DNA of 60,470 bases, the filler included, from Dimargaris cristalligena (Eukaryota): NCBI GenBank assembly GCA_003614675.1. It is 4 parts of 4 records of this genome, joined end to end, with 100 filler letters (N's around TTAATTAATTAA, not from the genome) between each part and the next. Parts side by side here need not be neighbours in the genome. Positions count along the whole stretch, not along the records: positions 1 to 15,066 come from ML002914.1; 3 more parts are not named here. One strand, given 5' to 3'. A model generated the notes under the pieces. It did not search any database. It was not told the origin of the DNA and saw only the letters and a list, made by a program, of their open reading frames with translations. Position numbers and translations under genes: made by a program. This document shows, piece by piece, positions 1-45,479 of this stretch; positions within the stretch are counted from its first letter, which is position 1, and each line of letters opens with the position of its first letter.

Positions 1-299
1 ATTAAGTATAGGAATAGTCCTTTAATAAGTAGTAGAAAGTAGCTTTAAAGTATTGAAAAATAGTAAAAAGTAGTTAAAGAAAGCTAATTTTTCACTAGTC
101 CAGTTACTAGACATCAATTTACATAGTACAGTTTTTTTTTTGGCTTTCCCGAGTCATTATTCATAGATTTATTATAGGTCTTATGATTGATCACAGGGTC
201 GGGGATCATTTTTCCCTCATTTTAAAAAAAAGTCCCATCGATCTACCTATTTCCCGTTTCGATAAAAAAATAGTCCCGCTACATCAATTGGAACTTTCA

Positions 300-976
300 T
301 TCAAATCATTATATAGCTTGATTGAACTTCTCCCATGTTTTACTTGTTTATCAATTGAATAAGTATTTGACACAGGTCTCTGTTTTGGCCTACTTTAACA
401 CTGCCAACCTATGCAGCAGTGCCACCCCTATTCAGCACAGTCATCATTCAGCCAAAACGTGGGCCAAACAGGAATTTCAAGCTGCATTAACCATTTGCCA
501 AGCCTGGGGCAATGCCTCATCAATCCTGCATAAACAGCACCTAAAGTTTTTGAATGCTCTAAGGGGCAGATAGCAACTTTTGGCTGAAGCCCAGGCTTGG
601 GTTAGACTAGGTGATCCTTTAAATTGGTCTACATACTAACATAAGGAATGTATCAATTTAATAATACCTCAAATGAGTTCACTATCCAAATAAGCTGGCA
701 AGGGTTGTCAAGAGCCCTATCTGCCTTATTTCAATAAATTGGCATGACATTACATATGTTTCCACCAGGCCATCTAATACAAGAATACCTGGGCCAGCAT
801 CATAAATCCATACACCCAGTCATCCAATTCTGGCAATTTCCCAGATAGTAGATTCTTAACTCAGAAATCTCACAACCCAACTCTCAAGATAAACCCAATG
901 ACAGTGGTAACTGGAACCCATCATCAATTGATGAATACAAATAGTCTTGTCAACCTACACAAATGATGGACAGGAC
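300..976. mobile_element. Degenerate, CpG-depleted repeat/transposon-derived DNA (family unresolved)
   Basis: No CG dinucleotide seen from ~460 to ~1685; only short broken ORFs; abuts an LTR-like element at a contig end. Confidence 0.45.
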
Positions 977-1557
977 TGTCACCTGGGTTAACTGCTCTTA
1001 GTCCATCAAGAGTCCCAAGGATAGGCTTCTGATGGTATGCAGGGCTTAGACTTGGCCAAGCAGGCTACTAATACCAGGTATAGGGCACAGTACTAACCAA
1101 TAAAGGCTTAGGTGGTGGGGTTATGCAAGGGACATGCAGTGGCACACTTACTAGTCAGTATAAGGGGGGTGAGTGTATATAGAGTTTATTGGTATAAACT
1201 AGGGGATAATGATAAGCTGCCCAATCTAACTGGTCCCAAGGGCCCAGTTATATATACATAAGGACAGCTCCAGAGGGAGGTCCCAAGGGGAGGTACTACT
1301 AGACTATAGTATAAATAAATAGACCAACCAAATGGGCTTTATATCTGAAAGACTCTCATGGAAACTGGAAGAGTCATTTGGATCAGCTGGTTGAGTGTTT
1401 TGTGCAAAGTGTTAGGGCCAGAAGGAGAGGGGTTATATAATAAATGATGATCCCATAGTACTAGGGGTGACTATGGGAGGGTTAGTATGGCACTATAAGG
1501 CCTAATAAGGATGGATGATCATTAAGTCTGGATTAAGTCAGATTAGGAGGGCCAACA
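977..1557 (-). mobile_element. LTR-like dispersed repeat, copy 1 (~581 bp)
   Basis: Homologous to 29852-30122 (same orientation) and 46323-46905 (inverted). Termini TGTCAC...CCAACA (TG...CA). On the minus strand TATATAA is followed ~60 nt later by AATAAA. No clear target-site duplication. Confidence 0.75.
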
Positions 1558-2881
1558 CACCAATTATTTTACCAGGTAAATGGTTTACTTAACTTGACTA
1601 GGTTCAGCTGGGGGTTAGTTTGCATAGGTCCAGGTAACAAAAAAGGCCTCCTTAAAGGGGCACATAATATGGGTAGGGTGGAAGGCCGATTATAGATTTT
1701 TCAGGGAAATAGAGCAGTTGCAATCGACGTCTCCATACCAACCAATAATATAGACATAAAGAGGCTTTGGTGGAAATCCTACATAAAAATAAATGGACAA
1801 TGAATTAATTAGCCATAATAGTCATAGTCACAGCAATTACTATCCAAGGAATAGTGACTATATATATATATATAAGAAGAAAATTGAGCATAGGATCTAC
1901 CAGGAAATGAACAGAATGGTTCAAATGGAAGAGTATGATTCTCGCCCGAATGGCCCCAAGGGTATAGATATAAATATAAATCATTTCATTGGGATAAATA
2001 CTCTAATTATTTGATTTGCATTATTTTTCTCTATTTACATTGCAAAGCTATGCTAGCCATCTACCTGACCAGAAGTGATAGGACAGTCTGTGAGATAACA
2101 GTGGATGTTGGAAGATTCCCCAGACCAACAGTGACCAAGTGACTGTGGTACAAGTACCCGTGAACAGGCATTATACCTGAGCCTTTGCATTATGCAGGTA
2201 TACCCACTGAGTTAGCCATGGGAAGGTGGAGGACTTTGTAGGTCGATGATGTGTATAGCAAATATGAAGTCCTGGTGATGATGAGTTAGGGTTGTGCCCC
2301 ACTCCCACTCCAGATGAGGTTAGTGGGAAAATCACTCAGATATAGTAACTGTGGAGCAATACCAGAGTACTCCTGGCAACTACTCTAGTCAAGGTTACTA
2401 ATAGCTTATTGTCAGGTGCTGGAGCATCTAAATACCTGACCTTATATAGTCAACCTAATTTACCCACAATGCACCGTAGAGCTAGATGGCACAGAATATA
2501 TATTTATACTTTATTTGTTTCGCCATGTCATAATGCTTAAAAATCAGCTGGATAAAGGTATTACTGAAGTCTACCCAAGACAATAACAAGTAACCCAAAA
2601 GCGGGCCAACGACCTCCACCATTGCTTCCTACCTGGGCAAAAAATTGCGCCTGGATGCGGAAGCAAGAGAAGTTGGGGGTCCGTTGGAGAAGGATTTACG
2701 AGCCACCCAAACGGTATACTACAGAAGCAACCATGAATAATTTAGACTTAAACTCAAGGACACGTAGCCAGGCATGTGATTTTTAATCCAAGTGGAGAAA
2801 TGAGAAACAGCGACCCCGGGAGTATCATTCATTAACCTAGCCTATATACTATAATAGGCACGGAAATATCTACCGATACAC

Positions 2882-3616
2882 TCAGGCGGATTTGCCAAAG
2901 GCCTTGATAAATTCGTGCAGCTCGATTTTGCCGTCCTTGTTGTGGTCGGCCTCCCGCATCATTTCGGTGATTTCGATGTCGGTTAAGTCTTCGCCGAGGG
3001 ACTCCATGACGATTTGCAGTTCGTCGCGGGTGATGTAACCATCGCCGTCCAAATCAAAGGACTTGAAGGTCTTGGTCAGCCGCTCCTCCTGGCTCAGTTC
3101 GGGGTCGTTAGTGGCCAGTTGTTCGCCGGTGGTCATCATGACGACAAACTCCTCAAAGTCGACGCGGCCGTCACCGTCGGCGTCGGCCTGCCTGATGGTT
3201 TCCTGGAGGTCCTTCAGGTTGGGGCTTTGGCCGGCGGCCTTCAGGGCGGCGTCGAGTTCAGCGATGGAGATGGAACCATCGTTGTCCTTGTCGAACAGGG
3301 TGAAGGTTTCCTTCAATTCAGCGAGCTTTTCCTTGGAGATGGAGTCGGTCTATGCATGGTGGAGGTGTTTGAGTTATTCGTTATAAGAAGGAAGAGGGAT
3401 GGGATGGAGCCGGACATGGCACAAGGGGGAACAGAGGGTGTGAGTGGATGAGTTGGGTGGGTATATGCAAGCGGGACTTTTTTTAGCAGCCCAGGGAGTT
3501 GGTCGGCGTTAAGGGGTAATAGAAGACCCGGAGCAGAGTGAGGGAAATTAGGGGAATATTAATGCCAAGACTACCATATTTGTACGTGATAATAAGATGG
3601 TTGGTGGACTTACCAT
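2882..3616 (-). CDS. Divergent calmodulin-like protein, four EF-hands, 156 aa
   Basis: Exon 1 is ATG only (3614-3616), followed by GTAAGT; intron 3350-3613 ends in CATAG; exon 2 is 2882-3349 (TDSISKEKLAELKETF...). EF loops DKDNDGSISIAE, DADGDGRVDFEE, DLDGDGYITRDE, DHNKDGKIELHE. Confidence 0.9.
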
Positions 3617-4189
3617 GATGAAATACGAGGGATGGTAATACAAATGGAATATCAGTAGCAGCAAATAGATAAATGTCAATAGAATGAGGAGTATAGAAGA
3701 AGTATCTTATCTAAGTACAGATTAAAGTGGCGGAGGAGAGTAAAAGCGAATAGGATAATAAAACCTGGAGGGGGCAGGGGTTTGACCCGAATAAATAGGT
3801 AATAGGCTGTGTCTCAGATGGCTGGTGTCGCATCGCCCCGAGCCAAAGACGGGCTACCCAGCCTGCCTATACAATATAGGATATTGGAGGAAGATTTCCA
3901 ACCAGTTTGTTAGATATGTTGAGAGTTCTACCGAACCTTCTTTGCTTGCGACTCCTGCACCCGAGGAGAGAGAGAGAGAGGAGGAATAGAGCGTGAGCGT
4001 TACGGAATCGACGAAAGGAACCTTTCCCCTCGCCTTCCACTCACTGAGTAAGGAAGAAAATTCTGAGGAGAAGCTCCCTCCCCGTCAGGTTTCGGCCAAT
4101 GGTTCCAGAAGAAGCTGCACATCCCCTTTAAGCCGTGGAAAGTAATTGAGCGAGGGATGGATTAACCTTATTCCCTCCCCACTTCACTC

Positions 4190-4190
<1 letters not shown>

Positions 4191-4217
<27 letters not shown>
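4191..4217 (+). repeat. (TAC)n microsatellite
   Basis: About 9 tandem TAC units. Confidence 0.9.
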
Positions 4218-4220
<3 letters not shown>

Positions 4221-5306
4221 ACGGCAATACCATTCTCCGCTCTTTGTGAAAAGCTGCTTCGGATTTTCCCTCTCACATTTATTATACACTCGAACAGAGA
4301 GAGAGTCGTTGTCTGCCCCACACACCACACCACCCCCTTCCTGCCTATCCTCTCCACTGAAAACCAACATGTCCTCTCCCATTGGAGCTGCCGTCGTCAT
4401 GGTGACCGTTCCATAGGCTGTCCGAATTGGTCGAGGGAGTCTGCAACATACCGCCACCCCAGGGCCAATAACCAACGCCAGCTCCTTAATTGAAGAAGCA
4501 ACCCACCACCCATCACCATCACCACCACATCAGCCGATAACTCCGCTACATAACCAGTGCATCAGGCTGACGCTGTTCTCTATCGGAAGGGGATCCAACC
4601 TCCCATCCGCTGACGCAAATAACCGCACCCTCAAATAGCACAGTGTGTAGTCCCATCGCTATTTTGACCCTGGGGCAATATAACCAAGATCGGGGGTGGT
4701 AAGTACTATTGAAGATGCCATTTTTAGAGATAATTGAAATTGGGGAGAACATCAATCATGCATCCTGGCATGACCATACATACACTGCCTCCTCCCCTTT
4801 CTATATAACCATGCATACACGAGTACCACCAGGTGTAGGAATCGAGGGAAACCAAGGCAATAGACGGAAGAGGGGACAATGGGCTAGTTATTGGGCATTC
4901 AAGGGTGGATACGGTATGGCTGGTGGGTCCCATCACTAGTCCCGGATCAACGTCGGGGTATTTATGGCACAGTAGTGGATCTCACAGTATTTATATAAAG
5001 GCCCGTCACTAAAAGAGGTGCGGCTTCCCAAACGGGTGGGCTCAAAGTGGCCAAACACGCCAAGTATAAGTATCCCTAGAGCAAGCGTGGAGAGGTATAG
5101 TAAGTCCCCAGCAAGCTAGAGAAGGGGGTCCTAGGCGAGAAGTAGGAAAGGCCAAAGTAGCGGGAAGGAGGTGTGCTGATGTATATATATATAAGTACGT
5201 ATATAATAGATAGGTAGGTTTATGGTGGGGGGAGGTATAACACGCCGCTAGTGTAAAGAGAAAAGGAACGGAGCCAGGCTGGGAGGGAGAGATACGAGGA
5301 ACTCTT

Positions 5307-5756
5307 CTACATGGAGGTCATCATTTTGACGAATTCCTCATAGTTGATTTGACCGTCGCCATCCACGTCGGCCTCCTTGATCATTTCGTCAACCTCACTC
5401 TCGGACAGCTTCTCGCCGAGACTGGTCATCACATGGCGCAGTTCCGCGGCGGAGATGAAGCCGTTGCCGTCCTTGTCGAAGACCTTGAAGGCCTCCCGGA
5501 TTTCTTCTTCGGAGTCGGTGTCCTTCATTTTGCGGGCCATCATGGTCAGGAATTCGGCAAAGTCAATGGTTCCGTTGCCGTCGGCGTCCACTTCATTGAC
5601 CATGTCCTGCAGTTCGGCCTCGGTGGGGTTCCGGCCCAGCGAGCGCATAACGGTGCCCAGCTCCTTGGTGGTGATGGTGCCATCGCCGTCCTTGTCAAAT
5701 AGGGAGAAGGCTTCCTTGAACTCGTCAATCTGGGCTTCGGTCAGGTTATCGGCCAT
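5307..5756 (-). CDS. CMD1: Calmodulin, 149 aa, uninterrupted CDS
   Basis: [41 protein letters not shown]...[45 protein letters not shown]...; near-canonical calmodulin. True ATG at 5756 (CACCATG). Confidence 0.97.
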
Positions 5757-7736
5757 GGTGAGTGAGTGAGCGGCTGGAAGAAAGTAAGTGGAGTGGAGTG
5801 GAGTAAATAAGGAAAGGCGGTGGCTAGTAACTAAAAGATAATAATAAGAAATATAAGCTGAAGGGGAGGGGGAAATGCGTAGCAGAGAGAGACAAGAAAT
5901 AGACTGACGCTGGGGGGGGGAGGATGGTGGAGGAGGAGAGAGGAGGCGGTGAGAGGCGAGGGGAGGGGGAAGCCAGAGCATGCAACCCAACCGTTGTTGG
6001 AAGTGAAGTGGGTAGGTGGGAAGCTGGAAAGGGGGTCAGGTGAAGGGAAATGAACTAATTACCGTCCTATAGAGCCCCTCCTCCTGCCCTATACGGACAA
6101 CTTCGAAACGGGCACCCCTGCTAAGGTCGCCAAGGTGGTACGAGCCTGCCTAATACACAACACAGCTAACAACCGCCCGTATCGGCTGGAACAGCCCACT
6201 GTGGAGTTACCCCAACCGTCGCCATAGAAGCAACGGCCAACCCTGACGGCGGTCGATACCCTGCGATGATACGAGACTACCCATGCCAATCCGTCGCCAA
6301 AATGATATAATAATCATAATCCCTATCATCCCACCTTCTACCATATCTGCTCATTCTCAGCTACTATGGAACTTTCTTCAGCTGCAAGGATCACCCCTCA
6401 CCCTGTTCTATAATGAAGACGCTCGTCATCTGCCGGATAATCACAACCATGTATCAGGCTGACTCCAGCAGGGTGCTGCTGGTATTACCCGCCCCGATTT
6501 TCTGTATAGCCCTGCGCCCACTCCAAACGGCCTCCAGCCAGACTGTGTGATATTCTGGTCCAGATCAAGCAGCACTGTATTCTTGTCCTCCGACCACGGG
6601 CAGGTCCATGTGTTCCCTCCTCCTCTTCCTCTTTAGTCCCCAGTGTTTGTTCACGCCCACCCGCTGCCTCCACCCCCTCCCCAATAGATCAACCACCCCG
6701 CCCTCCATCCCTTACCAGAAACCAGAAACAAGCGCCCAGGCCCACACCAGCACGTGTGGCCAGACAAGAAGATGTATTTCCGTAAATTTATTAACAGGTT
6801 GGATATATAAAATAGTACATGGGCGAGGGAAATGGCAAAAAATCCCCACATGTTGGCAAGCGGTGGTTGGAAGGGCGGCGCAGGTCATTCATAATAAAGG
6901 AGAGTCACCGAAGGATCCCCGCACGCATATCCACCAGAGTGCAGGCTGCCTCATGCCACATGGGTGAAATAAAGAAAGAATGGGTGAGGAAGATAAAAGC
7001 AGGAAAGAATAGGAGAGGCGGTGTAAGTAGTAGAGGGGGTATAATATGCGGAGGGTAGTAATAAATTAACGCGAAGGGGTGGGGGGGGTAGGAGGAGGAG
7101 TTGGGGTACGAGAGAACGAGGGGCAATGCAGCTGAAATCAGTGCGGGTAGTGAATGCCTAGTTTAGACGAGCTGGTACGAGGCAAATAGAAAGGTGTGTG
7201 TGTGTGTGTGTATGAGGATGTGGGATACAATGTCAGTATAATACTAAGATGGGGGATATAGCTACTAACTATGTGAAAAAATAGAGACGAAGTTGGGGAA
7301 AGCCGAACATAGCGGCATAGATGTACGCGAGTGGTCCGAAATCGTCAACCCCGAGTAATCGAGGGCGGATAAAAATATAGGTGGATCGGCGCGTACGAGG
7401 ATTCCTTTAAAAAAACCGATACGGATACATAGGGGGAGGGGTGATTCTCTAGAGAGTAAGTGTGCCGAGGGTGGGACACACCTTACAAAGAAGTTATTAT
7501 ATATAGATGACAGTAGAACAAGTGTGGTAAAAAAGTAAGGCTGAGAAGGTAGACGACACTGGACTACGTCCATGGGTGCTTGCGTGGGGTTTGTCCTAGG
7601 GGCCAACAACTGTGCGGCCCCTCCTCCCGATGATTTGAAACACCGGCTGCTTAATAAGCCCCGACATCTCTCCTCCTTGGAGGATGATCAAGCCGGGGGG
7701 TATACAGGTAAAAAAGGCCTAATGAGGAATCGTCGA

Positions 7737-9827
7737 CTAGCCGGTACAGCAGGCGCGGTTATTCATTTGGGTCTTATCGTGGTCGGCGTCTAATTGCACG
7801 GTGCCATTGGGGTTATTGCGCTTCCTCCTTTCGATTTCCTGGGCCTTTTCCAAGATTTTACGGGTCACATGGGTAAACATCTCGTCCACATCTGTCAGGA
7901 AAGTGAATAATAATTGTAATAATAAGGTATTCAATAAGAATCAGGCGATGCCGCGGAGGGGGGGTTAATGGAATTATTCGATCATGTGAAAAGGGAGGGC
8001 CTTCAATTTAGCCCTAAACAACTAAACTCGCCCTTGCCCTAACCACAACCCTAAACCACCCCCGCATGGGACTCTCATTACCATTATCATCACCATCACC
8101 AAGCAACCTACCTTCGTCATCCTTGGCCGAGACCTCGTAAAGCATATGATCGACGCCCAGCTGTTTCTTGCCATACGCATCAGCATCTTCCGCGTATACT
8201 TCGCGAAGGTGATCCAAATCCCGCTTGTTCCCCACGATTTGCAATACTGTTGAATCCAGGGAAATATGGGTATCCATAAACAATTGCTCAACGGAATTAG
8301 TCATCCGGGTGTGGGTGTCATGGATAATCCCCTAAGATTTAATAGAAATGAGGTGAATCGGGTTAGGCCTCTTCGTCAACCAAGTATCTGGATTGTAAGG
8401 TAACTTACCTATATCGTCTGATGTGGTCCGCCGTAGTTCTAGAGTAGGGGTATAATGGTAGCATAACCACCAAAAAATACAGGGTAAAAATACATTAGAC
8501 AATTGCAGCCAGTGTCAAAAATGAGGGATGTCGTGATATTGGCCCAGTATAGGGAGATTCCGTCAAATTTTGAATTGAATACCCCGCCCTACCTTTAATC
8601 CACGAGTCAATTTCGGCGAAGGACTTGCTTGAAGTAATATCGTAGACTAGAATGGCCGCGGTGGCCTATATTAGGGGGAATTCATAAAGCCGGGTAATGT
8701 AATTTAGATTCGGGATTAGTATATAGGCCATTTCCATCATAACAAAACGAACCGGATCGAAGAAGGGCACTGCCAACATCAATAATGCAGTCGGTATATC
8801 CACTTACGCCTCGGTAGTACATGGGAGCCTGTGGCATTGGGTAGATAGGACCGACCACGAGGGCACATTAGGGGGAAGCGGCAAATGTCGAATTAAGGGG
8901 GAATGGGAAAAATGGTCAGGGGATGCAAAAAAAAGGCGGATTAGAAGAGGATATTCAAGTCAGCAAGGAAGGGGAGATCCGGTAGAATGCAAACAATGGG
9001 TCAATATTTCGGGGCAGGGTAATTTCAAAGAGACCACGCGGCAGAACGGTACCCTCTCTTGGTAGACATCGATCCATTCAATGGTTATTCGTGCACTTAC
9101 CATGGGGCGGAAGCGGTCTTGGCCAGCGGTATCCCAAATCTGCAGGCGGATTTTGTAACCATCAACGACACTAAAAATAGGATATATATATAAAGCCACC
9201 ATCCATTTGGTGTAGATATTCGTGGGTTAGGAATGCGCGTGATATGAGAATATCAAATGACCCTGACATGTACAGGCGTGTATCGATAGCAGAGGAGGGA
9301 GATCATGATAGGCGTCATTAGAAGCGGGGGAACTTACAGTTTAGTAGCCATAAAGGATGCACCAATGGTGGATGGGCAATTGGGCGAAAACGTCTTTTGC
9401 ACGTAACGAATGACCAGCGAGGTCTTACCGACGCCTAAAGTAGAAGTAGGAATATGGCCGTATCAATAGATAGTGGAGGTAATATTGTTTAGTAGTCCGC
9501 TCGGGAGGGAATGGACTGGGCAGAGGGCTATGCCTCCGACAGGTTAGGTGGGAGGAGTAGAGGGAGGGCGTATATATATATATATATATATGTGTGTATT
9601 TGGGAGAGATACACCACGTTAAGGGTAGGAGGGGATCTGTCCTACGTCAGCGTGGATCCACCGAGTGATACAAGTGGAAGAGGGGCAATAAGCTTACGCC
9701 CGCCTGGTCGGAGTCGGGCCCATGTTAATGAGATGCTTATTACACACCGCCCAGCCTAAGCGAAAAGGGCACACTTACTTTGGCTGCCGAGGATAACCAC
9801 CTTGGCCTCCAGGAAATGGGCCGGCAT
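7737..9827 (-). CDS. Rab GTPase of the Rab5/Rab22/Rab31 group, 8 exons, 209 aa
   Basis: Exons 9779-9827, 9338-9434, 9101-9170, 8808-8828, 8593-8665, 8409-8438, 8112-8246, 7737-7891; all GT-AG, phases consistent, 630 nt total. Motifs GSQSVGKTS, TIGASF, WDTAGQDRF, APMYYRG, GNKRD, EVSAK and C-terminal CCTG prenylation signal. Confidence 0.93.
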
Positions 9828-10549
9828 GATGGGCGGAGGAGGACGGGGTTGGGGAGGTCGGTAGGGGAAGACGAACGGTTCCAGAGAACAACAGATGGGG
9901 CAGCGGAGTGGGTGGGGCCGATGAGGAAAGCCAAGGAACAAGCGGCGGAGGTTAAGTAGGAGGGGAGGAAGAAGTGTGGTAGAAGTGAGTGTGAAAGGGT
10001 AGAGAAGGAGACAGACACAGAGGCAGAGGAAGAAAGAGAGAAAGGAAAAGAGAGGTGGGGCAGCGGCAGAGAGGGAGAAAGAGAGAGAGTAGAGGAAGTG
10101 GGAGGGCCGGGCGCGGATAATAATAGTAAGGGGAAGAGGTAAGGAGAGGAGAAAGAAGAGAAGGGTAGAGTAGTAAGTATATAGTAGAGTAGGGTGGCCT
10201 ATGAGCCAGCTGAATAAGCCACGGGGACGTCGAACGAACTCAGCCCAACGAAGTCAAGTCGAGGATAATAGAATGGAGTGCTTTAGTAACAACGATATAT
10301 CCAGAGAAGCGAAGCTAACAATCAATAACAACAACTCCCAAATATTAATTGCTATAACGGATTGCCGGCGGATACTATTACTCCTCCTAGTATAATATCT
10401 CGCGCGGCCTATTCCTCCTGCCTTCATCGTTCGCTATTGTATTGTGTTGTGGTGGTGTTGACCACCAAAAAAGGAGGAGTTGGCTAGTCTGTACCACCTC
10501 GCAAGTCATGCTGGAAGCCGTGAGAAGGACGCTCTATCGAACCAGTTGG

Positions 10550-10602
10550 TCGGGGATATATGACCCTTGATATCGAACCCATCGGGATGCATATATCCCC
10601 GA
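10550..10602. repeat. Perfect 13-bp inverted repeat (hairpin)
   Basis: TCGGGGATATATG (10550-10562) / CATATATCCCCGA (10590-10602), 27-nt spacer with extra partial pairing. Confidence 0.85.
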
Positions 10603-10800
10603 TGAAGAAAGGTGAGAGAAAGAGACGGTCCCAAATTAACCGTGGCTAAACTATTCTTTCCATTGAGTGTTCCGGCATAATAATACCCTCAAAGTAGTAG
10701 TAGTGTGGTGAATAAAGCAGAGCAGCATATACTCCCCTCCCTCTTCTAGGGCTTACACTTGTTATTAAGCCTTACTAGTTCTAGCCTCAATAAACCTCTT

Positions 10801-10878
10801 TCCTACTCCTACTCCTACTCCTACTCCTACTCCTACTCCTACTCCTACTCCTACTCCTGCTCCTATTCCTATTCCTAA
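10801..10878 (+). repeat. (TCCTAC)n hexamer repeat
   Basis: 9 perfect units then 4 degenerate units (TCCTGC, TCCTAT x2, TCCTAA). Confidence 0.9.
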
Positions 10879-11066
10879 CCCTCATTTCCTATGGTCATCG
10901 TGTCCACCTACCTCTACTCGTAAAAACCCACGGACCTTCCTCTAGTTCCTGGCCTTTTCTAGCGCAATTCATTCTATTTCCCTTGCTCACCCTCTCTTAC
11001 TCGCTCACCTTGTTCATACCCTTTACCACTTCATTCCGCACCCACCCATATATAATATTTATAAAC

Positions 11067-11657
11067 ATGGACAAAAGCCTCTTCCAGCTCAAATTCACCG
11101 CCAAGTCCCTCCAACGGCAAGCCAAGCAATGCACCCGCGATGAGGCCCGGGAGAAAACCAAAGTGAAACAGGCCATCAAAATGGGCAACACCGAAGGGGC
11201 TCGCATCCACGCCGAAAATGCCATCCGCAAGAAGAACGAGGCCCTCAACCTGCTGCGCCTCAGTTCGCGCATCGATGGGGTGGCCAGTCGGGTCCAAACC
11301 GCCGTGACCATGCGCCAGGTCACCGGTTCCATGACCGCCGTGGTCGGGTCCATGGAAAAGGCTCTGAATGCCATGAACCTGGAGAAAATATCCCTCACCA
11401 TGGATAAATTCGAAACCCAATTCGAGAACCTCGACCTCCAGGCCCAGTACATGGAAGGCACCATGAGTGGTACCACCACGTTGACCACCCCCCAGGCCGA
11501 CGTCGATCAGCTGATGCAGCAGGTCGCCGAGGAACACGGTCTTGAACTCAACCATCAGTTGGGCGTGCCTACCAATGCCCTGCCCGAATCCCCCATCGCC
11601 GACCCTGTTCCTAAAGACGACCTTACCGAACGTCTGGCTCGGCTTCGGAATATGTAG
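11067..11657 (+). CDS. DID2: ESCRT-III-associated Did2/Vps46/CHMP1 (Snf7 family), 196 aa
   Basis: MDKSLFQLKFTAKSLQRQAKQC...GARIHAENAIRKKNEALNLLRLSSRIDGVASRVQTAVTM...; C-terminal MIM1-type DDLTERLARLR. Confidence 0.95.
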   Translation: MDKSLFQLKFTAKSLQRQAKQCTRDEAREKTKVKQAIKMGNTEGARIHAENAIRKKNEALNLLRLSSRIDGVASRVQTAVTMRQVTGSMTAVVGSMEKALNAMNLEKISLTMDKFETQFENLDLQAQYMEGTMSGTTTLTTPQADVDQLMQQVAEEHGLELNHQLGVPTNALPESPIADPVPKDDLTERLARLRNM

Positions 11658-13317
11658 TCGTCTTGCTCTCCCTGCACTCTCTCCCCCTCCCCTTACACCG
11701 GGCCCCTCCTCTCTTGTTGACAGCTACCTTATCTATCTATACCCAGCATGTCGCCCCTACTTGCCTAAGTTCGGTGCTGCTCGGGTATCTACCGACGATC
11801 GAGCCCTCCCCTGTACGCCTCTCCTCCTATTCTCGTTGTTTCCCGTTTATTGTACCATTCTCTGTTCGCCATACTTCCCTGATTTATTCCTACTTTATCC
11901 ATCTGTTTGGTTTGCTATGCCCTTCCTTGTGGGCCAAGAAGTACGATACCTACCTAATTTCAGTAAATGTGTCTGTATCGCCTCGAGTTACACCTTTGCC
12001 GTACATTGAATGATCATGGTGTATCTACGGTTACATTTATTAATTTACTTTTTATTTAGTTTTCAAAAAAGAGTTACCTCGTATTTAGAGGGGGGGGGTT
12101 CTTTTCCGTTGAAGCTACAGTATAGTTGGGCCATCATCGCTGAGGCTCATGTTATTGACCAATACACCCATAAATTAGGAGGAGGAAGAACACACCACCA
12201 ATGCCAAGAGTTTACCCTCTCTTTCTCAGTAGCCCTGCTCCACAATATATAAGCCTTGGCAACACCATCATGGCTGATGCCAAGCGGGTTTTGTGAGCCG
12301 AGCAGAGGAGTGCAGCTGCAGTCTCCAATCCGCGTGACCGAGTCTGGGCCAGAGGCAGGGCTGACCGGCCCTGGCATGTCAGCAAGGCCCCAGAACCCCG
12401 CTTGTTCCATCACACAGTGGGGCTGACCTTTTACCAAGTTGGTGAGCCACCCTCAATAAAATAATAGGCCTTCTCTCGACCACGTAGGCCCGAGCTGTCC
12501 CCTCTTGGCCTGAGCGACGGTGCTAAAGAGGGAGATTGATGGAATGCCGGGTGATTGCCTTCTATTTACCATATAAAAAGCCAAGGGATACTATATAATT
12601 CAAGGGAAATTCTACCTCCTAGAGAAGGCAGGTATGTGAGGTATTTCTTCAGCCATCTCCCTCCACTTAGCCACTATTACTACACAACCCGTTTTGCTTG
12701 GCCTCTTCCACCCACACTCCGTGGCGGCGAAATAATGTCTCACTTGGGGAAATAGTGGTGGTTGCCCACCAAATGATGGATGATGGGACCCCGCGCCCGA
12801 GGGACGTCACTGGCTGTGTGAAAGAGAGAGAGAGAGAATACCACTCAGCCGCTCATATAGCCTCCCTTCCGTTATTTTCCTTTACTCCCTCAGCCTTCCC
12901 TTCTTATACGCAATCTATCTAAACAGCCCTTTCCCTTATCAGCCTGACTCATATATACTTTTATTGACCTTTGGGTTCTCCTCCTCCTCCATCATTCCCT
13001 CAGCCCCAGCGGTGGTCTGTTCGTCAGTCGTTTTCCTTACCGGCTAAAAGTAAAAGGTCAGTTTTGCCCTAGTACCTACCACACCTTCCATGTAACCCTC
13101 TCACTCGCTAGCCTCTTCTTTGTACTCCCTTCGCATTCCCTAGAAGGATCATCTGGTTGTAGTCCCAACTACTCACTCATCCCGATCCTCTTCTAATATA
13201 ACCTGTGCTTTTTCCCCACTACCGCTTGCCTTTCGTCTTTGTCCCCCCCCCCCAACGCGTTCGGCCGGCCTCCCAACCCACAGAGCTACCCCAAGTTCTC
13301 GCCTTATCCCCACCGCA

Positions 13318-15018
13318 ATGCCCTCGGCAACTTTACCGAGTCCCGAGGACAAGGCGACCATCAAGCGGGCGCTGCCGTCCAATCAGAATGTAAGAATACC
13401 CTCTCTATTAGGCTATTTATTATTCAAGGAGTACACCCAACTGGCCGAACCTCCTTGGCTCAACTAAGTAAACCATACCTATGTTCTAGGGTGTAAATCC
13501 ACGACACTAGCCTCGACGACCCCTTGGGTCGCTTTGGCATTGCTCGCCGACTCAGCAGCCGTACGGCATATATCCGCCGTGGAATGGGCACTTGCGCATA
13601 CACCGCCCCCTCAGTAGCTTATTGAGGGGGAGGGAGGATATTCACCTATCCAATCTACGTTATTATTAACCCCCCCTAATCACTGCGGCCCTATTGTCTT
13701 GGCCTTTTGCCACCCCCTCCACTCTTCCGATTTTCTAGAAAATTCTGACGGCGACGGTAGCCCGCCTCTTCGCCGCCCGTCCCAACAGTCCCAACTGGGA
13801 GTACACCCATATTATGGGTGCCATTACATTTGTGCGCGACTACTCTCTCAACAGCACCTACTTTCTGCGGATGGTCGACCTCATGTCCAACCGAGGTGTG
13901 ATCTGGGAGCAGGAGCTGTACGACGGGTTTGACTACACCATGCGACAGCCGTTCTTCTACACATTTACGGGCGACGTAAGTGACTTAACAATACCACTTA
14001 ATGGCAATAGGTCATTCCTATCAGATACACGATACTTCCCTGGACCTTATGCATAGCGGTTTAGCCAATGTCCACACCCATTCAGATACCATATAACTCT
14101 AACCCATTTACTATTTCCCCCCTCCTACAACTAATCCTACTTGCATCCAAACCACCAGGAATACATTTTCGGCCTGGATTTCGTTGATGACGAGGAAGCC
14201 AAGACGTTTTTCAAGAAACTCAAGAACCGGGATAGCTCCAAGGGCGGCAAGGCCCCCTCCGCCCCTGCCCAGGCCCAAGCCCCGGAATCAACCGGGTCCT
14301 ACTTATCGAGCTTCTTCGGATCCCCGCGCACTAGCAGTACTCGCCGTCGAAACAAGATCGATAAGTCCCAGATTAGTGCGCCTTCGGACTTTAAACATGT
14401 CGGCCACGTCGGCTGGGATCCGGATAAGGGCTATGATATGGTCAATGTTGATAATCCCCAGTGGAAGCAACTGGTCGATCAGTTGGCCAAGTATGGCATC
14501 ACTAAAGAGCAGCTCCATGACAAGGAAACCGCCCAAATTGTTATGGGTTTCGTTGAGAAACACGGCGGGGTGGAACATGTGGTGGAGTCGTCCAAAACCG
14601 TCAAAAACAAGCCGGCCCCGGCCCCGCGGACTTCGGTTTCTGGTCCACCAAATGCGGCTCCCCCGCCGCCACCACCAAGTGCTCCACCGATGGCCCCACC
14701 ACCTCCTCCTCCTCCACCGCCGGCAAGTGCACCGGCCTCTGCGCGACCCCCGCCGCCTCCGCCCGCGGCCCGCAGCGAATCCCCGTCGGTCGGAAATCGG
14801 GCCGCGGGTGGTCGACGTGCCCCCCCTCCCCCTCCGTCTCGTGCCAATAAACCGAAACCCCCGCCTCCGGGCTCCAAGCCGCAAATTAACTTCGGTAACC
14901 GTTCGTCTCTCACCTCACCCCCTAAGTCTTTACCCCCGCGGGCCCCATCGACTCAACTACCGCCTCCACCGCCTCCGAACTTCAAGGCACCTTCTCCACC
15001 AGCTTCGGCCCCCCCTTC

Positions 15019-15066
<48 letters not shown>
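13318..15066 (+). CDS. LAS17: WASP/Las17-family actin nucleation-promoting factor (WH1-CRIB-polyproline), 3'-truncated at contig end
   Basis: Exons 13318-13389, 13739-13975, 14159-(15066). WH1 (KILTATVARLF...VIWEQELYDGFDY...PFFYTFTGD), CRIB ISAPSDFKHVGHVGWD, proline-rich region. WH2/acidic tail missing because the contig ends in poly-C. Confidence 0.92.
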
Positions 15067-15166
15067 NNNNNNNNNNNNNNNNNNNNNNNNNNNNNNNNNN
15101 NNNNNNNNNNTTAATTAATTAANNNNNNNNNNNNNNNNNNNNNNNNNNNNNNNNNNNNNNNNNNNN
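15067..15166. other. Artificial contig spacer 1
   Basis: 44 N + TTAATTAATTAA (stops in all six frames) + 44 N. Confidence 0.97.
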
Positions 15167-17291
15167 ACTCGTCAGGGGCATACTTCCGATAAGTGCGAAA
15201 AATAGATAAAAAATAAAAGTAGGTAAAAAATGTGGTAAGTTCACCACAGGGGTCATGTGGAATAGCAGATGAGGGAGGGTAGTTTTTATTACAAAGTGCA
15301 GGGAGGTCCACAGTACCAACCAGGTTGTGGTTAAAATAATTTGGTAGCAGGCACTGGTGCTGGCAATACAGGGAAGTGGGAAATTAATAGATTGAATGAT
15401 GACTGGGTGGCAAATAGGGTTGGCCATGACATTTATTCTTAGGGATGTGGGTGTCAAGTTCAAGGGTGTTATTAATGAGGCAGAAGCTGTCCACATTACT
15501 ACAAACCTTATTTGAGGGTAAAATAAACCCCATATGGGTTTTTACTATGGTGTGGAGTGGGCAGGTCAGAAAAAGGGCCCTAGTTTATGTGATAGCCAAA
15601 GACAAACGGGAACTAGCTATTGAATAAGTATTTCTTCCATCTTGCTGATTCTATATATTTGACCATCGTCCTATGCTCAGGACATCAATTTATCCTGACT
15701 ATTTGTTCTAACTCATAAAAACCAACTGCGGACATCCAGCTATGCCACTCATGGTTCTTCCTCTCTTCTACTGTTCTTTTAAATTACATTAGGAAGACTA
15801 TGCATTTACCCTTTAATTAATTATTACAACTCCTTTAACAATATCCAGTAATAATGGACATCAATGTTACTGATAAAGATAGGTGAAGGAGGGGTAGAAT
15901 TTGGCCCTATTTCAAGTTACCTAGAGAATTGGGACTAATGGGTTTTCCATTTCAATCAGTAATGAGTGGCTTGGTTTCGCTTATTCAGCATGGAAAATCA
16001 ACCAATATTAGATTTTCTAGGCCTAATTTTACCCCAGCTATGAATCGAAAAGACTTCATGATAAGCAGTGGAAATGTGCTGAAAACGATACCAACCAATC
16101 ATCTTAGCCTAATTTATTCCCTATATGGTCGATGGTCTTAAACAAAAAGCGAGTGAGAAACACGCTTGACTCTATTCCCAAACTCTTACTTACCTCAAGG
16201 TGAACGCGGGCTATGTGGTAAATACAAGAGGGAAGAAAATATGTAAGAAAGAAAAGGAAAAGGGCCGGCTAAGCCATTGGTAGATGTAGTGGTCCACCTG
16301 CGAAAAACGCAGCAGGTGCCTGATGGTTGAGGCGTTGTTTGGGGTATGTGCGGATTTATTCACTATCCCCTTCTTCCTTGTCTATACTGCTCGATTTCAT
16401 TAATCCGCTGGAGGTGAGGTGGGGGGGCGTAAAGACCCCCCCTCCTGCCAAACCACCGCCGTCCACTAGCTTTATTTCGACCTGATCGTCGGCCAATTGG
16501 CTCAAATCGAACCGTAGAACGTGGGTAAGCGCCAAGTTCCTGGGAGTTTTTCTCAGCCCGAAATTGGTTTAGCCTATGGCCGTCGATGGTTAAACCGATT
16601 GGTTAAATTGGCCATCTAGGAAAATTATACAAATCGTCGACTCGTTTGGTGTAGATTATGAAACGTGGCCCCCCGTATGTTCCAGAGATTGAGAGAGAAT
16701 AGCTAAGCTATTCTGCAATAACTAAGCGCGTAATATATCCCGTCGACTACCCTATTACAACTAATAGAAGCCGAGACCTCAAGAAGGCGCCTTTCGATGG
16801 CTAGTGGTCAAGCTTGGCCAGATTAAGTGTGGGCCGATTACGTGGTATGCGCCCGCGGGAACGAAGGAAGCCACATGCGGGAGTCGCAGTGTCCGCCAAC
16901 AGGCTAGAGAGCCCCATTCCAACCCGGTTACCCGCTTAGAAGGTTTTAGTCTGCCATTCTAGTGGTTGACGCAACAGTCGAAACGCATGCTCGTTAGCCC
17001 AACGAATTGGATCATTCGTCCGTTTTTGTTATCGCGCTGCTTTGATAGGTCAGGGGATCGGTATATAGATTGCCGCGCTTGGGCTGTCCTAGGTTCTGAC
17101 TAGCTTATTAAGATCCATTGGTCGCATATCGCGAGGCCACTGTCCTGATTGGTAGGGGGGCATCATTGCGAGAACCACTACGTCCTATTGAAGAATGTTT
17201 GTGCCATTTTGATATAGAGTATCGTTAGTGTATCTATCTATCTATAAATCTATACTAGATGGTTTAAACCACCTGTCGATCATTCAGAAAT

Positions 17292-17299
17292 TATAAATA
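17292..17299 (+). promoter_or_regulatory. Candidate TATA box
   Basis: TATAAATA ~250 nt upstream of the RlpA-like ATG, followed by a CT-rich leader. Confidence 0.4.
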
Positions 17300-17549
17300 G
17301 AGGTGGATTTTGCGCACCAAGGAACCGATTTTATTCCTTACCACACCTTATTCTACCCACACTCACTTGCTCACGACGAACTGACCGGATTATTTCTCTC
17401 GAGCAAATCTCTCCTCAACATCTATACCACAAATTCCTCTTCTCATCACCACCCCACACCGCCTCAATCAGAACACCTGTAGCAATCTGGTATTGCTCAA
17501 CAAACGTCTCCCTCAATCTTCTCCATTTCTCCTGCTCGTATCATTCAAC

Positions 17550-18059
17550 ATGGTTGCTTTCACCAAGGCCGCTCTTCTGCTCGCTGCCGCCGCCTCTGCT
17601 GGTTTAGTGACTGTCCAAGCTAGCCCCGCCGCCTATACGCGCGTGGTTTACGAAACGGTGACTAGCTACATTGAAACCACCACCGTCACCCCGGCCGCCC
17701 CCGCGCCCACCGCGGTGGAAAAGGACGCCTCCGTTGTTGATTCCGCGGATACCTATGCCGGGGAAGCTACTTACTACAACCCTTCCGTCGGGACCGGTTC
17801 CTGCGGCTGGCTCAACCAAGACACGGAACTGGTGGCGGCCTTGAACGCCCCCCAATTCGGCAATCCCGCTAACCCCAATAACAGCCCCTTCTGCGGTCAG
17901 CAAATTGTCGTGAAGGGACCCAAGGGTTCGGTGCAGGCCACCATTGTCGATAAATGTCCCGCCTGCAAGTCCGGCGATATTGACCTGAGTCCCGCCGCTT
18001 TCAACCAGATTGCCGACGAGGCCCAGGGTCGCGTGGGTATCACCTGGAGCTTTGTGTAA
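17550..18059 (+). CDS. Secreted RlpA-like double-psi beta-barrel (expansin/loosenin-like) protein, 169 aa
   Basis: Signal peptide MVAFTKAALLLAAAASAGLVTVQA; Thr-rich linker; DPBB motifs GEATYY...GTGSCG...VAALN...CG..I.V...IVDKCPAC..GDIDLSPAAF..IA....GRV.ITW. Confidence 0.92.
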   Translation: MVAFTKAALLLAAAASAGLVTVQASPAAYTRVVYETVTSYIETTTVTPAAPAPTAVEKDASVVDSADTYAGEATYYNPSVGTGSCGWLNQDTELVAALNAPQFGNPANPNNSPFCGQQIVVKGPKGSVQATIVDKCPACKSGDIDLSPAAFNQIADEAQGRVGITWSFV

Positions 18060-18903
18060 TTAAAAATAAAATAAAAACTGTAGCAGTCTCGGCAGTGGTT
18101 GGTAGGTAAATAATACCATTGAAAACTGTCGTGGCCCGTTTTACTTGTACATAGTTGGCCACGTGATGGTGTTCTCTAAGCCCACTGACTCCGAAGGGCT
18201 TTAATGATGTGCCCGAGCCTCATAAACAACCATTTTCTATAAAAATAAATAATGAAATATCTTGAAATATCTAATAATCAAATGGCGTTGTAATCCCGGT
18301 TAACGGCCACGCATGGTGGGGAGAAGAGGGGGATATCTTTGAAGAACAAAATAATAATAGAAAGCGAATGATTTATTAAGTAAAGGAAAGGCGGATTAGT
18401 TGCCGATATCGATAAATACTTAGTTGATTTACAATATGTGGCTGTGTTCATTGACTAGCTGGAACAAAACTAGGCCGAGAAGGGTAGAAAATCAAATATA
18501 AATACAATTTGCTGACTAATACTAATTCGCCGCTTGTCAAGTATGGGGTCTTTTTTAACCCGAATTTCACATGCATAAACATTTTTACCAAAATTTGAAT
18601 TTCCAGTATAATAATGTATTAAAAAGAGTATATTACAAACTGCCGAATTTCCACGATAACTGATAACAAATGACTAGAAGAAAGGAAAAATAAGAGATAA
18701 TCTGAATAAGTCTAATAGTTGACCAGCTGCCCTTCTATGGTCATTAGCGCCGTGGTATTTCAGAGATGGACAAATTCCTATGGACAAGAAACTGAATAAC
18801 TGAGACCCCTTGTTGATGATACCGCGAATAGGAGAAGAAGGTGAGTCGTGTCTCAATTCAAAGGCTGGGTAGAGGGAATGCCTGTTCAAATGCCTCACCT
18901 ACT

Positions 18904-20106
18904 CTAAAGCAAACCATCCACATCCAGCCGATCTTCCGGGGTCAAATGCATAAATTCCCGGGTACACGAAAAGCTGACCCGGTCTACGCTTCGGCGCGGA
19001 TTACAGGTACATTTTTCCGAGTTGATCACCGGATCACTAGGACAATTTTCGTACGAGGCATGGACGTAGCCGATGTCCTGAAACCAGTGGATTTGGTCAC
19101 GGCGTAGGAACATAGTGGCGGCTAGGGAATGCACGGGAGCATCGCCCCACCGTTCATAATAAAAGCCGCCGGCCCGGTCGAGATGGTTGAAATAGGAGAG
19201 GTACTGCTCGGAGCGGAAAAAGGCCAGACTGGCGATTTCGAAATTAGACCAAAAATGGCAGAGGTTGTAGGTACTGCGGCGGTTGGGGGCCGGATCGGTC
19301 GTCTTGCGGGGGGAGGAAGACAGGGACGAGGGAATATCCGGGTCCACGACCCAGGCCAGAGTATTGTCTATGGGCACCATGGCCCGATTCTGGCGCATAT
19401 AATCCAAAGTCGCGGGCCACAGACTCTCGACGGTTGCCGGGATTTCCTTGAGCGAAATGGTGAAGCCGTATTTGATGTCACGCTCGTGCATGAACACGAA
19501 GGGGTCGTAATCGATGGCACAGGTAAACTGCACGCCCGGTTCGACGCGCCAGTAGTAGTCGAATTCGGCCAGAAGGGGGTGGCGGAAGAAGAAGCCGGAC
19601 TCGAAGCGACACATGTGGCGGTACGACTCGCTCCCGCCGTACATGACGTTGGCCATGCGACGGCGCGCATCGGCGGCTTGGGTCTGATTAATCCAAGACG
19701 GATAGCCCCAATGTTCCTGGGGGATTACCCCGAATGTCGTATTGGCACCGCCCGTCAAGCCCCGCACGGACCGCTCCAATTCCGGGGCAAAGGGTTCATC
19801 GTTGAGGATAACGTACGGATAATGGTGGCGATGGTTGAATTGCTGCTCGAGTTGGCGGATACTGGTCTCTAGGCCAGCAAGTTCGCTGTTGCGGGTGAGG
19901 ATAACAAAGCAAGCCTTGACCCGCGGCTTCGAAGCGTGGCCGGGGGAGGTCGACCAGCCTAATGAGCCGCTGGGGTCGGTTGTGGTGAGAAGTGAGTCAT
20001 AATCGAGGTCACCTACCATCCAGGGCCGCATAAACAAAAGATGCAGGAATAGCACGATGAACCCGCCCAGAAGTAGGGTTTTAAATAAGCGAGACAGAGG
20101 CTGCAT
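18904..20106 (-). CDS. GT15 alpha-1,2-mannosyltransferase (KRE2/MNT1/KTR family), 400 aa
   Basis: N-terminal TM anchor; YGGSESYRHMCRFESGFFFRHPLL, YYWRVEPG, YNLCHFWSNFEIA, GGFYYERWGDAPVHS. Confidence 0.96.
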   Translation of the reverse strand: MQPLSRLFKTLLLGGFIVLFLHLLFMRPWMVGDLDYDSLLTTTDPSGSLGWSTSPGHASKPRVKACFVILTRNSELAGLETSIRQLEQQFNHRHHYPYVILNDEPFAPELERSVRGLTGGANTTFGVIPQEHWGYPSWINQTQAADARRRMANVMYGGSESYRHMCRFESGFFFRHPLLAEFDYYWRVEPGVQFTCAIDYDPFVFMHERDIKYGFTISLKEIPATVESLWPATLDYMRQNRAMVPIDNTLAWVVDPDIPSSLSSSPRKTTDPAPNRRSTYNLCHFWSNFEIASLAFFRSEQYLSYFNHLDRAGGFYYERWGDAPVHSLAATMFLRRDQIHWFQDIGYVHASYENCPSDPVINSEKCTCNPRRSVDRVSFSCTREFMHLTPEDRLDVDGLL

Positions 20107-20140
20107 GGTTCCTCAATGGTCGGATAAAGGCCGAGTTATA

Positions 20141-20188
<48 letters not shown>
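20141..20188 (+). repeat. (AAT)16 microsatellite
   Basis: 16 tandem AAT units, 35-82 nt upstream of the GT15 start codon. Confidence 0.95.
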
Positions 20189-20189
<1 letters not shown>

Positions 20190-23100
20190 GACAAGTAGGA
20201 AAGACGGCTGGCATTAAAGTAGCTGCTATAGTCGGACCTGGATAAAGCAGAGGCCAAAGACCGCCGGGCTTTGTGAATTAAAAGCAAAGAAGAGGGAGAG
20301 GGGCCACCGGTTCAAGGGTAACATCACCAGAATAATTCGGTATTTTTTTGTTGGCACAGGAGTGCAATAAAAATTGCGGTGCTAGGAGCAGCTAAGGGAC
20401 AATAAAAAATATCCAGACTGGTGGGTCGGCGAAGTCGTACTAGCTTGGCTCTAAGAAGGCAACACTGTGGCCCAAAAGGGAGCGCGGGTTACACGTTGTT
20501 TGCCTAATAAGGCTCCTGGAAAGCGACACGGAGTTGAGAGGTTCTTTGTGGTTTCTGGGACATGAGTGGGCGTCGCGGCTGGAGAGAAGCAGTGGGGGAG
20601 TCCTATCTAAATAAAGAGGAGCCGGCTAATTGAAAAAGGCAAGGCCCGAAAGTCCTTCTTGGCAAGGAAACCTACAAACCCACAGGGATGAAGAAAGAGC
20701 TGGCACCAAAAAACAAAAAGAGAGTAGTATAATAATATAGAAGTTAGCCTTCTAATGGAGAATGAGCGCCAATCTAACGGTTGAAATGCGGGAGCTTCTT
20801 GGCATGGAAAAGGAGAATCTGGTAGAATAATAAACTATAATAAAACTGATAAAGTTTGGTGGTTTTAAAAACTATATATATATATATATATGTAAAGGAA
20901 GAGGTGGTTTATTTCTCTCCCAATACCTATCTCTCTGCCCAGTGCAATATAGACGCCACAGTTCAGTATTATAAGCATAGCCACTTTAGCTATATGGGCG
21001 GGATAACAACACAGAGCCCACTGGCGCTGCTCAGTTTATCAGTATTTGGGTATCCAATGGGCCACTTTCCTTCATTCCAATGAGAGCGTGAGCAATGTAT
21101 TTCACAGCCGGGGCGGTGGTTTCAGCCCACCGCTACTAAGCAGGGAAGAAACCCCGAGGAAAGTAAAGTACACCCTTTCAATCCGCAAGCAAGTGTGATT
21201 GGGTGTGAACATAGCTGTGCTGCTGCTTAATACTGCACTAGAAAGGAGAACGAGAGGGAGAGGTTACGTAAACCAACTGGGGGGTTGTTATGGTCTAATG
21301 GAATATATATGGGCGGTTTGTTTACCATACCATCGGGGCCTATATTCATTACATCGGCCGAAACATCTGGGCAGAAGGGTGCTATTATTCCCAAAATATC
21401 AGTTAGGTACACCTACTTTCTTACCAATAAAAGAGCCGATATCTACTCATGAACCTGAAGTATACTTCGTAAGGTACTCTTGTCTCTATCGAATACAGTT
21501 CGGCGGCTCTCCCTGTGTATGCCGACTACTCTGCAATGAAAAAGGGACAACCACTATCGTATTTATAGGCTTCCAAGTATGATAATAGTCTCAGCCGCTA
21601 CTATACCGAAGCACTAGCCATTCTTCAAACAAGAGCTTGGTATACTTCATCTCTCCACAGTATTTCCCAGCCCGCTATTGATATATCCCATTGCGTGGTG
21701 GTGTATCTTGCCGGCCTGGTTGGAATATCCCCGGTGGCTAAAGCATGAGCAAGAGTTACGCCAAATGTAGATGGATTGGCAATTAATGGAATGCCGAAAC
21801 CACGGAGTTGGATATTACCACTTCCATCCAACGGTTGATATTGGAGCCTCTTGGCTCTTTTATTTGGTTCTGGTGAAACTCGACGACCCCTATAGGGTAC
21901 CACCGGCCCAAACGGGAGATGCATCCCCATCTGGTGGAAGGAACCTCCGATGCAAAAAGCATAGAGAGGCTGAGTAGGTAGGCAGGGCACTGAGGGAAAC
22001 ATAGGGACCGAACCTGTGCATAGCAAAACAAGCTCGCAGGGAGCATTTGGCAGCCCCGATTCACTCCACTCCCTTTAACCAAACATATCGCCACGACTCA
22101 ACAAAACTCTGCGATAGTTAAGACGAAAACATAAAATACTGAATGGTAAACAAATGTGATCCTAGCGGGGGGGCTGTGGTACAGGGTTAACCAGCGAAGC
22201 CCGCAACTCGTCTAATCATATTTACGCAGTGCGGCTGGACCAAAAATATAAACTTGATTTCGTAGCCTGTATTGGATGGACTACTCCACTCGATTCTAGT
22301 GTCCTAAAAATACCCCTCCCATTCGAGTAAGGCCAGATTTAAACCTTATTCACCCGGGATGCTCCTCCTATGGGGCACATCCTCTCGCTTAGACCACCAC
22401 CACTTTGCAGACGGCAGCTGCTGGGATAGGATTACGGCTATAGCACCTGTCCTACGAATAGTGAATATCCCCCCACCCGCCCCCCTTGTTGGTCTTTGGC
22501 CGCTTATTAGTGTTGTTGGTTCTGGTTTTTCTCCTATGCACGAATTCTATGCGACCCTTTTTGGGAGGGGTTTTTTTATATAAAAAGCGCACCAATCGGC
22601 CAAGAAGCAGCGGCACAGTTCTACCATCGGGTAGGACGGGTGTTCCATTAACCATGTGCCTGAGGCCTCGGGTGAGAGCTGGCCTTTCCGAATGCAGGCT
22701 ATTAACCGCATGTTAAGCCAGCTTTACCATGCGACGTGCCACTCGAGGGATGTCGTTGTGTAATCCTAAATATAAGAAACTGCCTCTAGTCATACAGCCA
22801 GTCGATTCCATTCGCTCACTCCCCCTTCTCCCCTTTTCTTACGGTGCGACTCCACATACCCTAACACAGCAACTGAATAATAAAGCCTACCACTACTTCA
22901 GCCATAGTGGAGAGGGGGAGGGAGGTGCCGTCGTCGTTGGGCGCAATATCCATTTTCACATATCGTAGTCAGTGTAATATTTCAGGGCTGTATAAAATAC
23001 CGTCCGGTCGCTGAGCTCGAACTATCTATCAATCACTTCTACCATCATTTCTCGCCAAAGCCCCTGTTTTTTTATCCCCGCGACTCAACTTGTTACACTT

Positions 23101-45443: not shown

Positions 45444-45479
45444 CTGGTGTACGCTTACTTGGATATCCCTACCATACAC

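Follow-up and report, generated by a model that had tools for sequence, protein, structure and literature searches.

How does a stretch of DNA come to lose every one of its CpG dinucleotides when the genes next to it keep theirs? The question is raised by positions 458-1687 of the sequence analysed here (the window, 60,470 bases in all), which comes from Dimargaris cristalligena, a mycoparasitic zygomycete of the Zoopagomycota (Kickxellomycotina; Dimargaritales). An earlier note had remarked that no CG is seen from about 460 to about 1685 in spite of CG-rich genes nearby, and had read this as hypermutation of CpG aimed at repeats, possibly by a RIP-like defence system. The remark itself was accurate: 458-1687 contains no CpG, and the observed/expected ratio (o/e) of the dinucleotide in the neighbouring genes is about 0.7-1.2. 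What has to be understood is the process that produced the void, and how far it extends.

It must be kept in mind that the window is made of four joined contigs and is not one locus, so that distances between repeat copies are meaningless. The pieces, each of about 15 kb, lie at 1-15066, 15171-30210, 30311-45343 and 45444-60470. Among the fungal genes that they carry are those of a GT15 alpha-1,2-mannosyltransferase, an actin-family protein, Snf7, EF-hand proteins, EMG1/NEP1 and RPC82. Over 92% of its length the GT15 ORF shares 95% identity with a protein of D. cristalligena; the matches that come next, with 50-63% identity, belong to other Dimargaritales and Kickxellomycotina. The features that matter for the argument are the following.

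977-1557, plus strand: copy 1 of the interspersed, high-copy repeat of 581 bp, bounded by TG...CA and containing 0 CpG (blastn, alignment)
29849-30122, plus strand: copy 2, the first ~274 bases of the repeat, after which it diverges; the contig ends at 30210; 0 CpG (blastn, alignment)
46323-46903, minus strand: copy 3, complete, with 79% identity to copy 1 and 1 CpG (blastn, alignment)
458-1687 (1229 bases), no strand: CpG-free run, with 55.1 CpG expected, 0 inside, and 52 GpC (dinucleotide counts)
1688-2500, no strand: CpG-poor shoulder between the island and the first gene, 7 CpG, o/e 0.23
15171-16000, no strand: CpG-poor block opening contig 2, o/e 0.19
28500-30210, no strand: CpG-poor block closing contig 2, containing copy 2
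30311-31500, no strand: CpG-poor block opening contig 3, o/e 0.10, with no copy of the 581-bp family
45444-49000, no strand: CpG-poor block opening contig 4, containing copy 3, with 1 CpG in 45452-47679
15067-15166, 30211-30310 and 45344-45443, no strand: artificial spacers at the contig joins, each N44 + 12-base all-frame stop-codon linker + N44

A high-copy repeat within a CpG-free island

The segment 977-1557 is a member of a high-copy interspersed family, the edges of which fall exactly at 977 and 1557, where the earlier note had placed them. Positions 300-3300 of the window occur in five public runs from two studies; contigs from four runs, belonging to both studies, were placed on 440-1700 at a likeness of at least 80%. 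With this threshold, between 1440 and 2340 contig pieces per run match 977-1557, and single variant letters of the repeat are carried by 60-110 contigs. Cover at 440-976 and 1601-1700 is that of a single contig per run, with a few additional short pieces at 698-783 and 913-955 in two of the runs (X3 and X5). Unmatched contig ends stack at precisely these two edges, with 45-52 contigs breaking off at 977 and 30-32 at 1557. Beyond these edges the agreement with the consensus is just 0.41, the flanks being AT-rich and unlike each other, which shows that the family occupies many different AT-rich insertion sites. The three copies in the window display pairwise identities of 75.9%, 79.3% and 77.9% (blastn).

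To which class does this element belong? It begins with TGT and ends with ACA at the edges of the family, that is, with the TG...CA termini that make it LTR-like. A target-site duplication of 4-6 bp was looked for at copies 1 and 3, and no matching flanks were found at either. Among 68 ORF fragments of at least 45 aa drawn from the CpG-poor blocks, none matched Pfam at E<=0.01, so that these fragments display no relics of transposon proteins. Decay could have removed both the target-site duplication and the internal features of a retrotransposon, and we therefore call the 581-bp repeat LTR-like with its class not fixed. A reading of the repeat as a SINE or a MITE was considered and is not supported: Rfam returned one sub-threshold match to it (25.7 bits, E 0.61; the gathering score is 51.5), it has 0 tRNAs, and it lacks any terminal inverted repeat of more than about 10 bases.

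Some further traits of the family may be recorded here. Runs X3 and X5 both yield a contig that links position 1557 of one copy to position 981 of another across 27 other letters, which implies that some copies elsewhere in the genome lie head to tail. When contig depth is summed, it changes by a factor of about 50 from one part of the repeat to another, between 999-1041 and 1472-1514 on the one hand and 1300-1385 on the other; some segments of the family have thus been conserved much better, or kept more often, than its middle. Finally, in the single-copy flank 440-1011, run X5, which comes from the second study, differs from the window by 6 substitutions and 1 gap in 572 bases, a strain divergence of about 1%.

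The void in CpG does not stop at the edges of the repeat. The run 458-1687 comprises copy 1 together with single-copy flanks at 458-976 (519 bases) and 1558-1687 (130 bases), and these flanks are as free of CpG as the repeat itself. This is where the qualification 'repeat-targeted' proposed for the process finds no support: the target is the repeat island, not sequence homology, and the erasure is regional. It might be that the flanks are older repeats that drifted below 80% likeness, instead of truly unique DNA. Further CpG-free runs extend over 29540-31199 (across a spacer), 45452-46621 and 46621-47679. In the CpG-poor blocks CpG o/e lies between 0.01 and 0.25, against 0.82-1.07 for GpC. The three repeat copies, pooled, retain 1 CpG in 1436 bases (o/e 0.01), whereas unique, CpG-normal, non-coding DNA matched for AT content (5470 bases, GC 0.386 against 0.435) has a CpG o/e of 0.83. 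The repeat is therefore far below unique DNA of like composition, as the earlier note had anticipated.

The fate of the lost CpGs

Comparison of the copies tells us what the missing dinucleotides became. If an ancestral CG is deaminated on the top strand in one copy and on the bottom strand in another, TG will stand opposite CA in their alignment. Such oppositions occur 8 times between copies 1 and 3 (576 aligned positions, 119 differences), 6 times between copies 1 and 2 (270 aligned, 64 differences) and 6 times between copies 2 and 3 (271 aligned, 62 differences); in every pair of copies CA/TG is the commonest adjacent double difference. Shuffling of the alignment columns gave means of 1.15, 0.77 and 0.95, and the observed 8, 6 and 6 were reached in 0 of 5000 shuffles. 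The mirror control, AC opposite GT, which would witness decay of GpC, gave 0, 0 and 0 where about 1 was expected. The four CA/TG pairs from which the idea had sprung are present in the alignment, at 980, 993, 1133 and 1174. The enrichment of transitions at ancestral CpG, proposed as a check on that idea, was found far above the shuffles, and with it the proposal that an ancestral CG was deaminated independently on opposite strands in each copy holds good.

The oppositions of TG and CA point to 15 ancestral CpG sites, one of which (1379) depends on a stretch of copy 2 that aligns poorly. The hits at these sites number 18 on the top strand and 18 on the bottom strand. Immediately 5' of the affected C stood A in 11 cases, C in 11, G in 8 and T in 6 (n=36). 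This even split between strands, together with the mixture of 5' bases, means that CpG is the target on either strand, whatever base precedes it. We rejected for this locus a hypermutation specific for TCG, of the type met in Pucciniomycotina: T precedes the hit C in 6 of the 36 cases, and 458-1687 keeps no CpG of any context. Since eight oppositions are found within 581 bases, we infer that each element had at least about 16 ancestral CpGs, and that the CpG content of the progenitor was about normal. The loss has been almost total, with about 1 CpG surviving of about 50 inferred.

A second account can be drawn up by arithmetic, taking AT-matched unique DNA as the baseline for the dinucleotides that are missing or gained. 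In the flanks of copy 1, 22.0 CpG are missing and the gain in TpG+CpA is 23.8. The corresponding figures are 18.6 and 20.3 at 1688-2500, 19.5 and 16.9 at 15171-16000, 35.5 and 33.2 at 28500-29848, and 47.4 and 50.8 at 46904-49000. In these five single-copy blocks the missing CpG thus about equal the gain in TpG+CpA, which is direct arithmetic evidence that CpG became TpG or CpA. Two blocks balance less well: 30311-31500, with 22.2 CpG missing, a gain of 12.6 in TpG+CpA and of 7.1 in TpA, and 45444-46322, where 22.0 CpG are missing against a gain of 9.2 in TpG+CpA, with some gain of TpA. Conversion of the DNA of these islands is, in short, CpG-specific, strand-symmetric, independent of copy, and region-wide.

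The repeat copies themselves behave otherwise. Their 54.9 missing CpG are not recovered as TpG or CpA, the balance of which is -8.8, and TpA is in excess by 60.7. TpA o/e is 1.50 in the copies (1.40-1.66), TpA/ApT is 1.46 and (CpA+TpG)/(ApC+GpT) is 1.02, giving a positive composite RIP index. In the single-copy flanks the corresponding values are 0.88, 0.83 and 1.59. Decay of CpG alone does not account for the TpA excess of the repeat, to which we return below.

Probable methylation and its rivals

We think it probable that what we see is a decayed, high-copy, LTR-like repeat lying in an island that was subject to CpG methylation and then to deamination of 5-methylcytosine (5mC). In this explanation 977-1557 would be one decayed copy of the 581-bp family inside a repeat island of D. 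cristalligena, and such islands would be, or would long have been, methylated at CpG on both strands. Symmetric maintenance would most likely be ensured by a DNMT1-type system, such as is listed for other Kickxellomycotina. 5-methylcytosine would deaminate spontaneously to T, turning CpG into TpG when the top strand was hit and into CpA when it was the bottom strand. Each copy, and the island DNA around it, would have lost nearly every CpG independently, over the long time span that is implied by a divergence of about 21-24% between copies. Genes and unique AT-rich DNA would have remained unmethylated, and so would have retained their CpGs. That the flanks are single-copy and yet CpG-free is what a mark spread over a chromatin domain would lead one to expect. 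The part played by 5mC as the cause, the nature of the enzyme responsible and whether the process still runs we infer from the mutational footprint.

Several facts bear on this explanation from outside the window. The usual picture of early-diverging fungi is one of little 5mC and abundant 6mA. Against the account in terms of 5mC one may count a review in which 5mC is scarce in Zoopagomycota (PMC11258239), and another in which it is near-undetectable in early-diverging fungi (PMC13297926). As to the enzymes, PMC10538959 lists DNMT1 and UHRF1 for Coemansia reversa and Linderina pennispora, and their absence for Smittium mucronatum; the DNMT table in its supplementary file 1 has no entry for Dimargaris. 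There is also the matter of rate. According to a rough estimate, near-total loss requires transitions to occur about 25-35x faster at CpG than elsewhere, a high figure for passive decay.

This very large excess in rate, as roughly estimated, and the almost total erasure of CpG in a high-copy family are what one would also expect from an active, homology-dependent mutator resembling RIP but specific for CpG, which would recognise duplicated DNA and act in bursts, for example premeiotic ones. RIP-like signatures at CpG or TCG have indeed been proposed for Pucciniomycotina (PMC3318451; PMC4352252). We nevertheless consider such a mutator unlikely in the present case. The single-copy flanks (519 and 130 bases) and the blocks without a second copy in the window are depleted just as much as the repeat, an argument that has to be weighed with the fact that RIP leaks into neighbouring DNA. 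There is no preference for TCG, with T located 5' in 6 of 36 cases, and a burst and a slow decay leave the same pattern in these data. A kingdom-wide screen, moreover, is reported to have found repeat-directed signatures in ascomycetes only, from scaffolds >50 kb, which are largely lacking in the Dimargaris assembly (PMC12543289). Among the suggestions of the earlier note, erasure linked to methylation therefore stands as the best-supported reading, regional instead of repeat-specific; its extension to a RIP-like system with CpG specificity is unsupported, as passive deamination of 5mC gives the same pattern and the depletion of the single-copy flanks speaks against such a system. Much further down the scale of probability comes the idea that nothing special took place, the pattern being due to the general AT-biased decay of junk DNA, to chance, or to an artefact of assembly or amplification. 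The blocks are AT-rich (GC 0.32-0.44) and do sit at contig ends, but GpC o/e is normal there (0.82-1.07), AT-matched unique DNA has a CpG o/e of 0.83, and CA/TG pairing exceeds the shuffles by far; as the same sequence recurs in runs from two studies, an assembly artefact is not at work. The contrast in CpG o/e, the shuffles and the recurrence in two studies led us to rule out this possibility. Hardly conceivable, finally, is an explanation that the LTR-like ends of the element might bring to mind, in which a cytidine deaminase edited the cDNA of a retroelement prior to its integration. Hits are shared equally by the two strands (18 and 18), C is affected at CpG and not in a TC or CC context, and the single-copy flanks are also affected; strand symmetry, context and flank depletion together exclude strand-specific editing of this kind.

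Methylation followed by deamination thus remains the explanation that we prefer for the loss of CpG, and the TpA excess of the repeat raises a separate question. Could two tiers of mutation be superimposed, regional decay of CpG through maintenance methylation, and a C-to-T process at CpA restricted to repeats, whether Dim2-like non-CG methylation or true RIP? The repeat copies lost about 55 CpG and gained about 61 TpA, and this excess is absent from the flanks. In the part of the alignment where the three copies can be compared, majority-rule parsimony assigns C>T to 17 of 27 sites at CpA, compared with 8 of 45 at CpC and 4 of 48 at CpT. Once CpG-type sites are removed, counts derived by hand for 977-1250 are 12/66 versus 12/279 site-copies (Fisher p 4e-4). 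Of the 52 alternatives that stand opposite a variable TA, 39 are CA or TG. The independent half of the repeat, 1251-1557, however, has no excess at YpA (odds ratio 0.98). Family-wide, 12 of the 27 transitions listed are in YpA context against a baseline of 34% (p 0.18), and since these come from the best 40 of 425 variant rows, apparently chosen by share, their context counts are weak. Furthermore, 20 of the 51 TA columns are common to all three copies, which means that the element was to some extent rich in TpA before its copies diverged, and only three copies are aligned, so that polarity leans on the assumption of a star tree. On balance we regard a second tier as doubtful. If it were true, Dimargaris would possess a two-tier mutational genome defence outside Dikarya, which would account for the confinement of the TpA excess to repeats.

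Dimargaris among known systems

The phenomenon, in itself, is already known; its occurrence in Dimargaritales seems to be unreported. We found no paper on methylation, methylome or CpG decay in Dimargaris in the literature, where supplementary species tables may hold some. The best reading is that of an ordinary footprint of cytosine methylation then deamination, with no new mechanism or defence system established.

In basidiomycetes, overrepresented CpG transitions in the transposons of Agaricomycotina were ascribed to deamination of 5mC (Horns et al. 2012, PMC3318451). As with the methylated transposons of these fungi and of vertebrates, C-to-T conversion at CpG affects both strands in Dimargaris, the gain of TpG and CpA matches the loss of CpG, silent DNA rich in repeats is alone affected, and genes are spared. 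The differences are that the host is an early-diverging zygomycete and that erasure is essentially complete. Nearer to our fungus, in the same subphylum, Linderina pennispora (Kickxellomycotina) has its 5mC almost exclusively in repeats (Mondo et al. 2017, cited in PMC11258239, PMC10538959), and this methylation of repeats and not of genes is the state that the footprint in Dimargaris predicts. Unlike the direct methylome of L. pennispora, and unlike the vertebrate and Agaricomycotina cases, the process is known here from its mutational footprint in the sequence alone.

A signature of C-to-T change restricted to CpG has also been described in transposons of Microbotryum, Melampsora and Puccinia, and linked to a Masc2-like Dnmt1 (Amselem et al. 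2015, PMC4352252). The likeness is that of a fungal repeat family with its transitions concentrated at CpG. Pucciniomycotina are also known for hypermutation at TpCpG (Horns et al. 2012, PMC3318451), from which Dimargaris departs by the want of a 5' T preference (6/36) and by the fact that its single-copy flanks are hit too.

In Ascomycota, RIP depends on RID and converts CpA to TpA in duplicated DNA. The repeat copies of Dimargaris resemble its products by their TpA/ApT of 1.46 and their positive composite index, and differ from them in that the saturated, main target is CpG, that the evidence for CpA is weak, that the effect is not limited to duplicated DNA, and that the host lies outside Dikarya.

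Why should this matter? Dimargaris cristalligena is hard to culture. Complete, island-wide erasure of CpG provides indirect evidence of strong and long-lasting methylation of repeats at CpG in the lineage of Dimargaritales. A CpG o/e near 0, associated with a gain in TpG and CpA, offers a cheap marker of silent chromatin in fragmented assemblies that can be read from sequence only. It also explains the breaks between contigs at CpG-poor blocks: of the eight contig ends, five are occupied by such blocks, which is what breakage of assemblies within repeat islands would produce.

The genes of the window, for their part, call for a few remarks. The EF-hand (calmodulin-like) genes at 3018-3311 and 5307-6035, both on the minus strand, form a paralogous pair with common 57-base repeat units. 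Between them, at 4173-4233, lies a (TAC)n run. A run of the hexanucleotide (TCCTAC)n, at 10789-10888, opens the ORF that contains the Snf7 domain. Lastly, an uninterrupted ORF of 1429 aa extends over 34786-39075 on the minus strand; its one match in Pfam is a borderline one to the PX domain, with 21.6 bits, a score equal to the cutoff.
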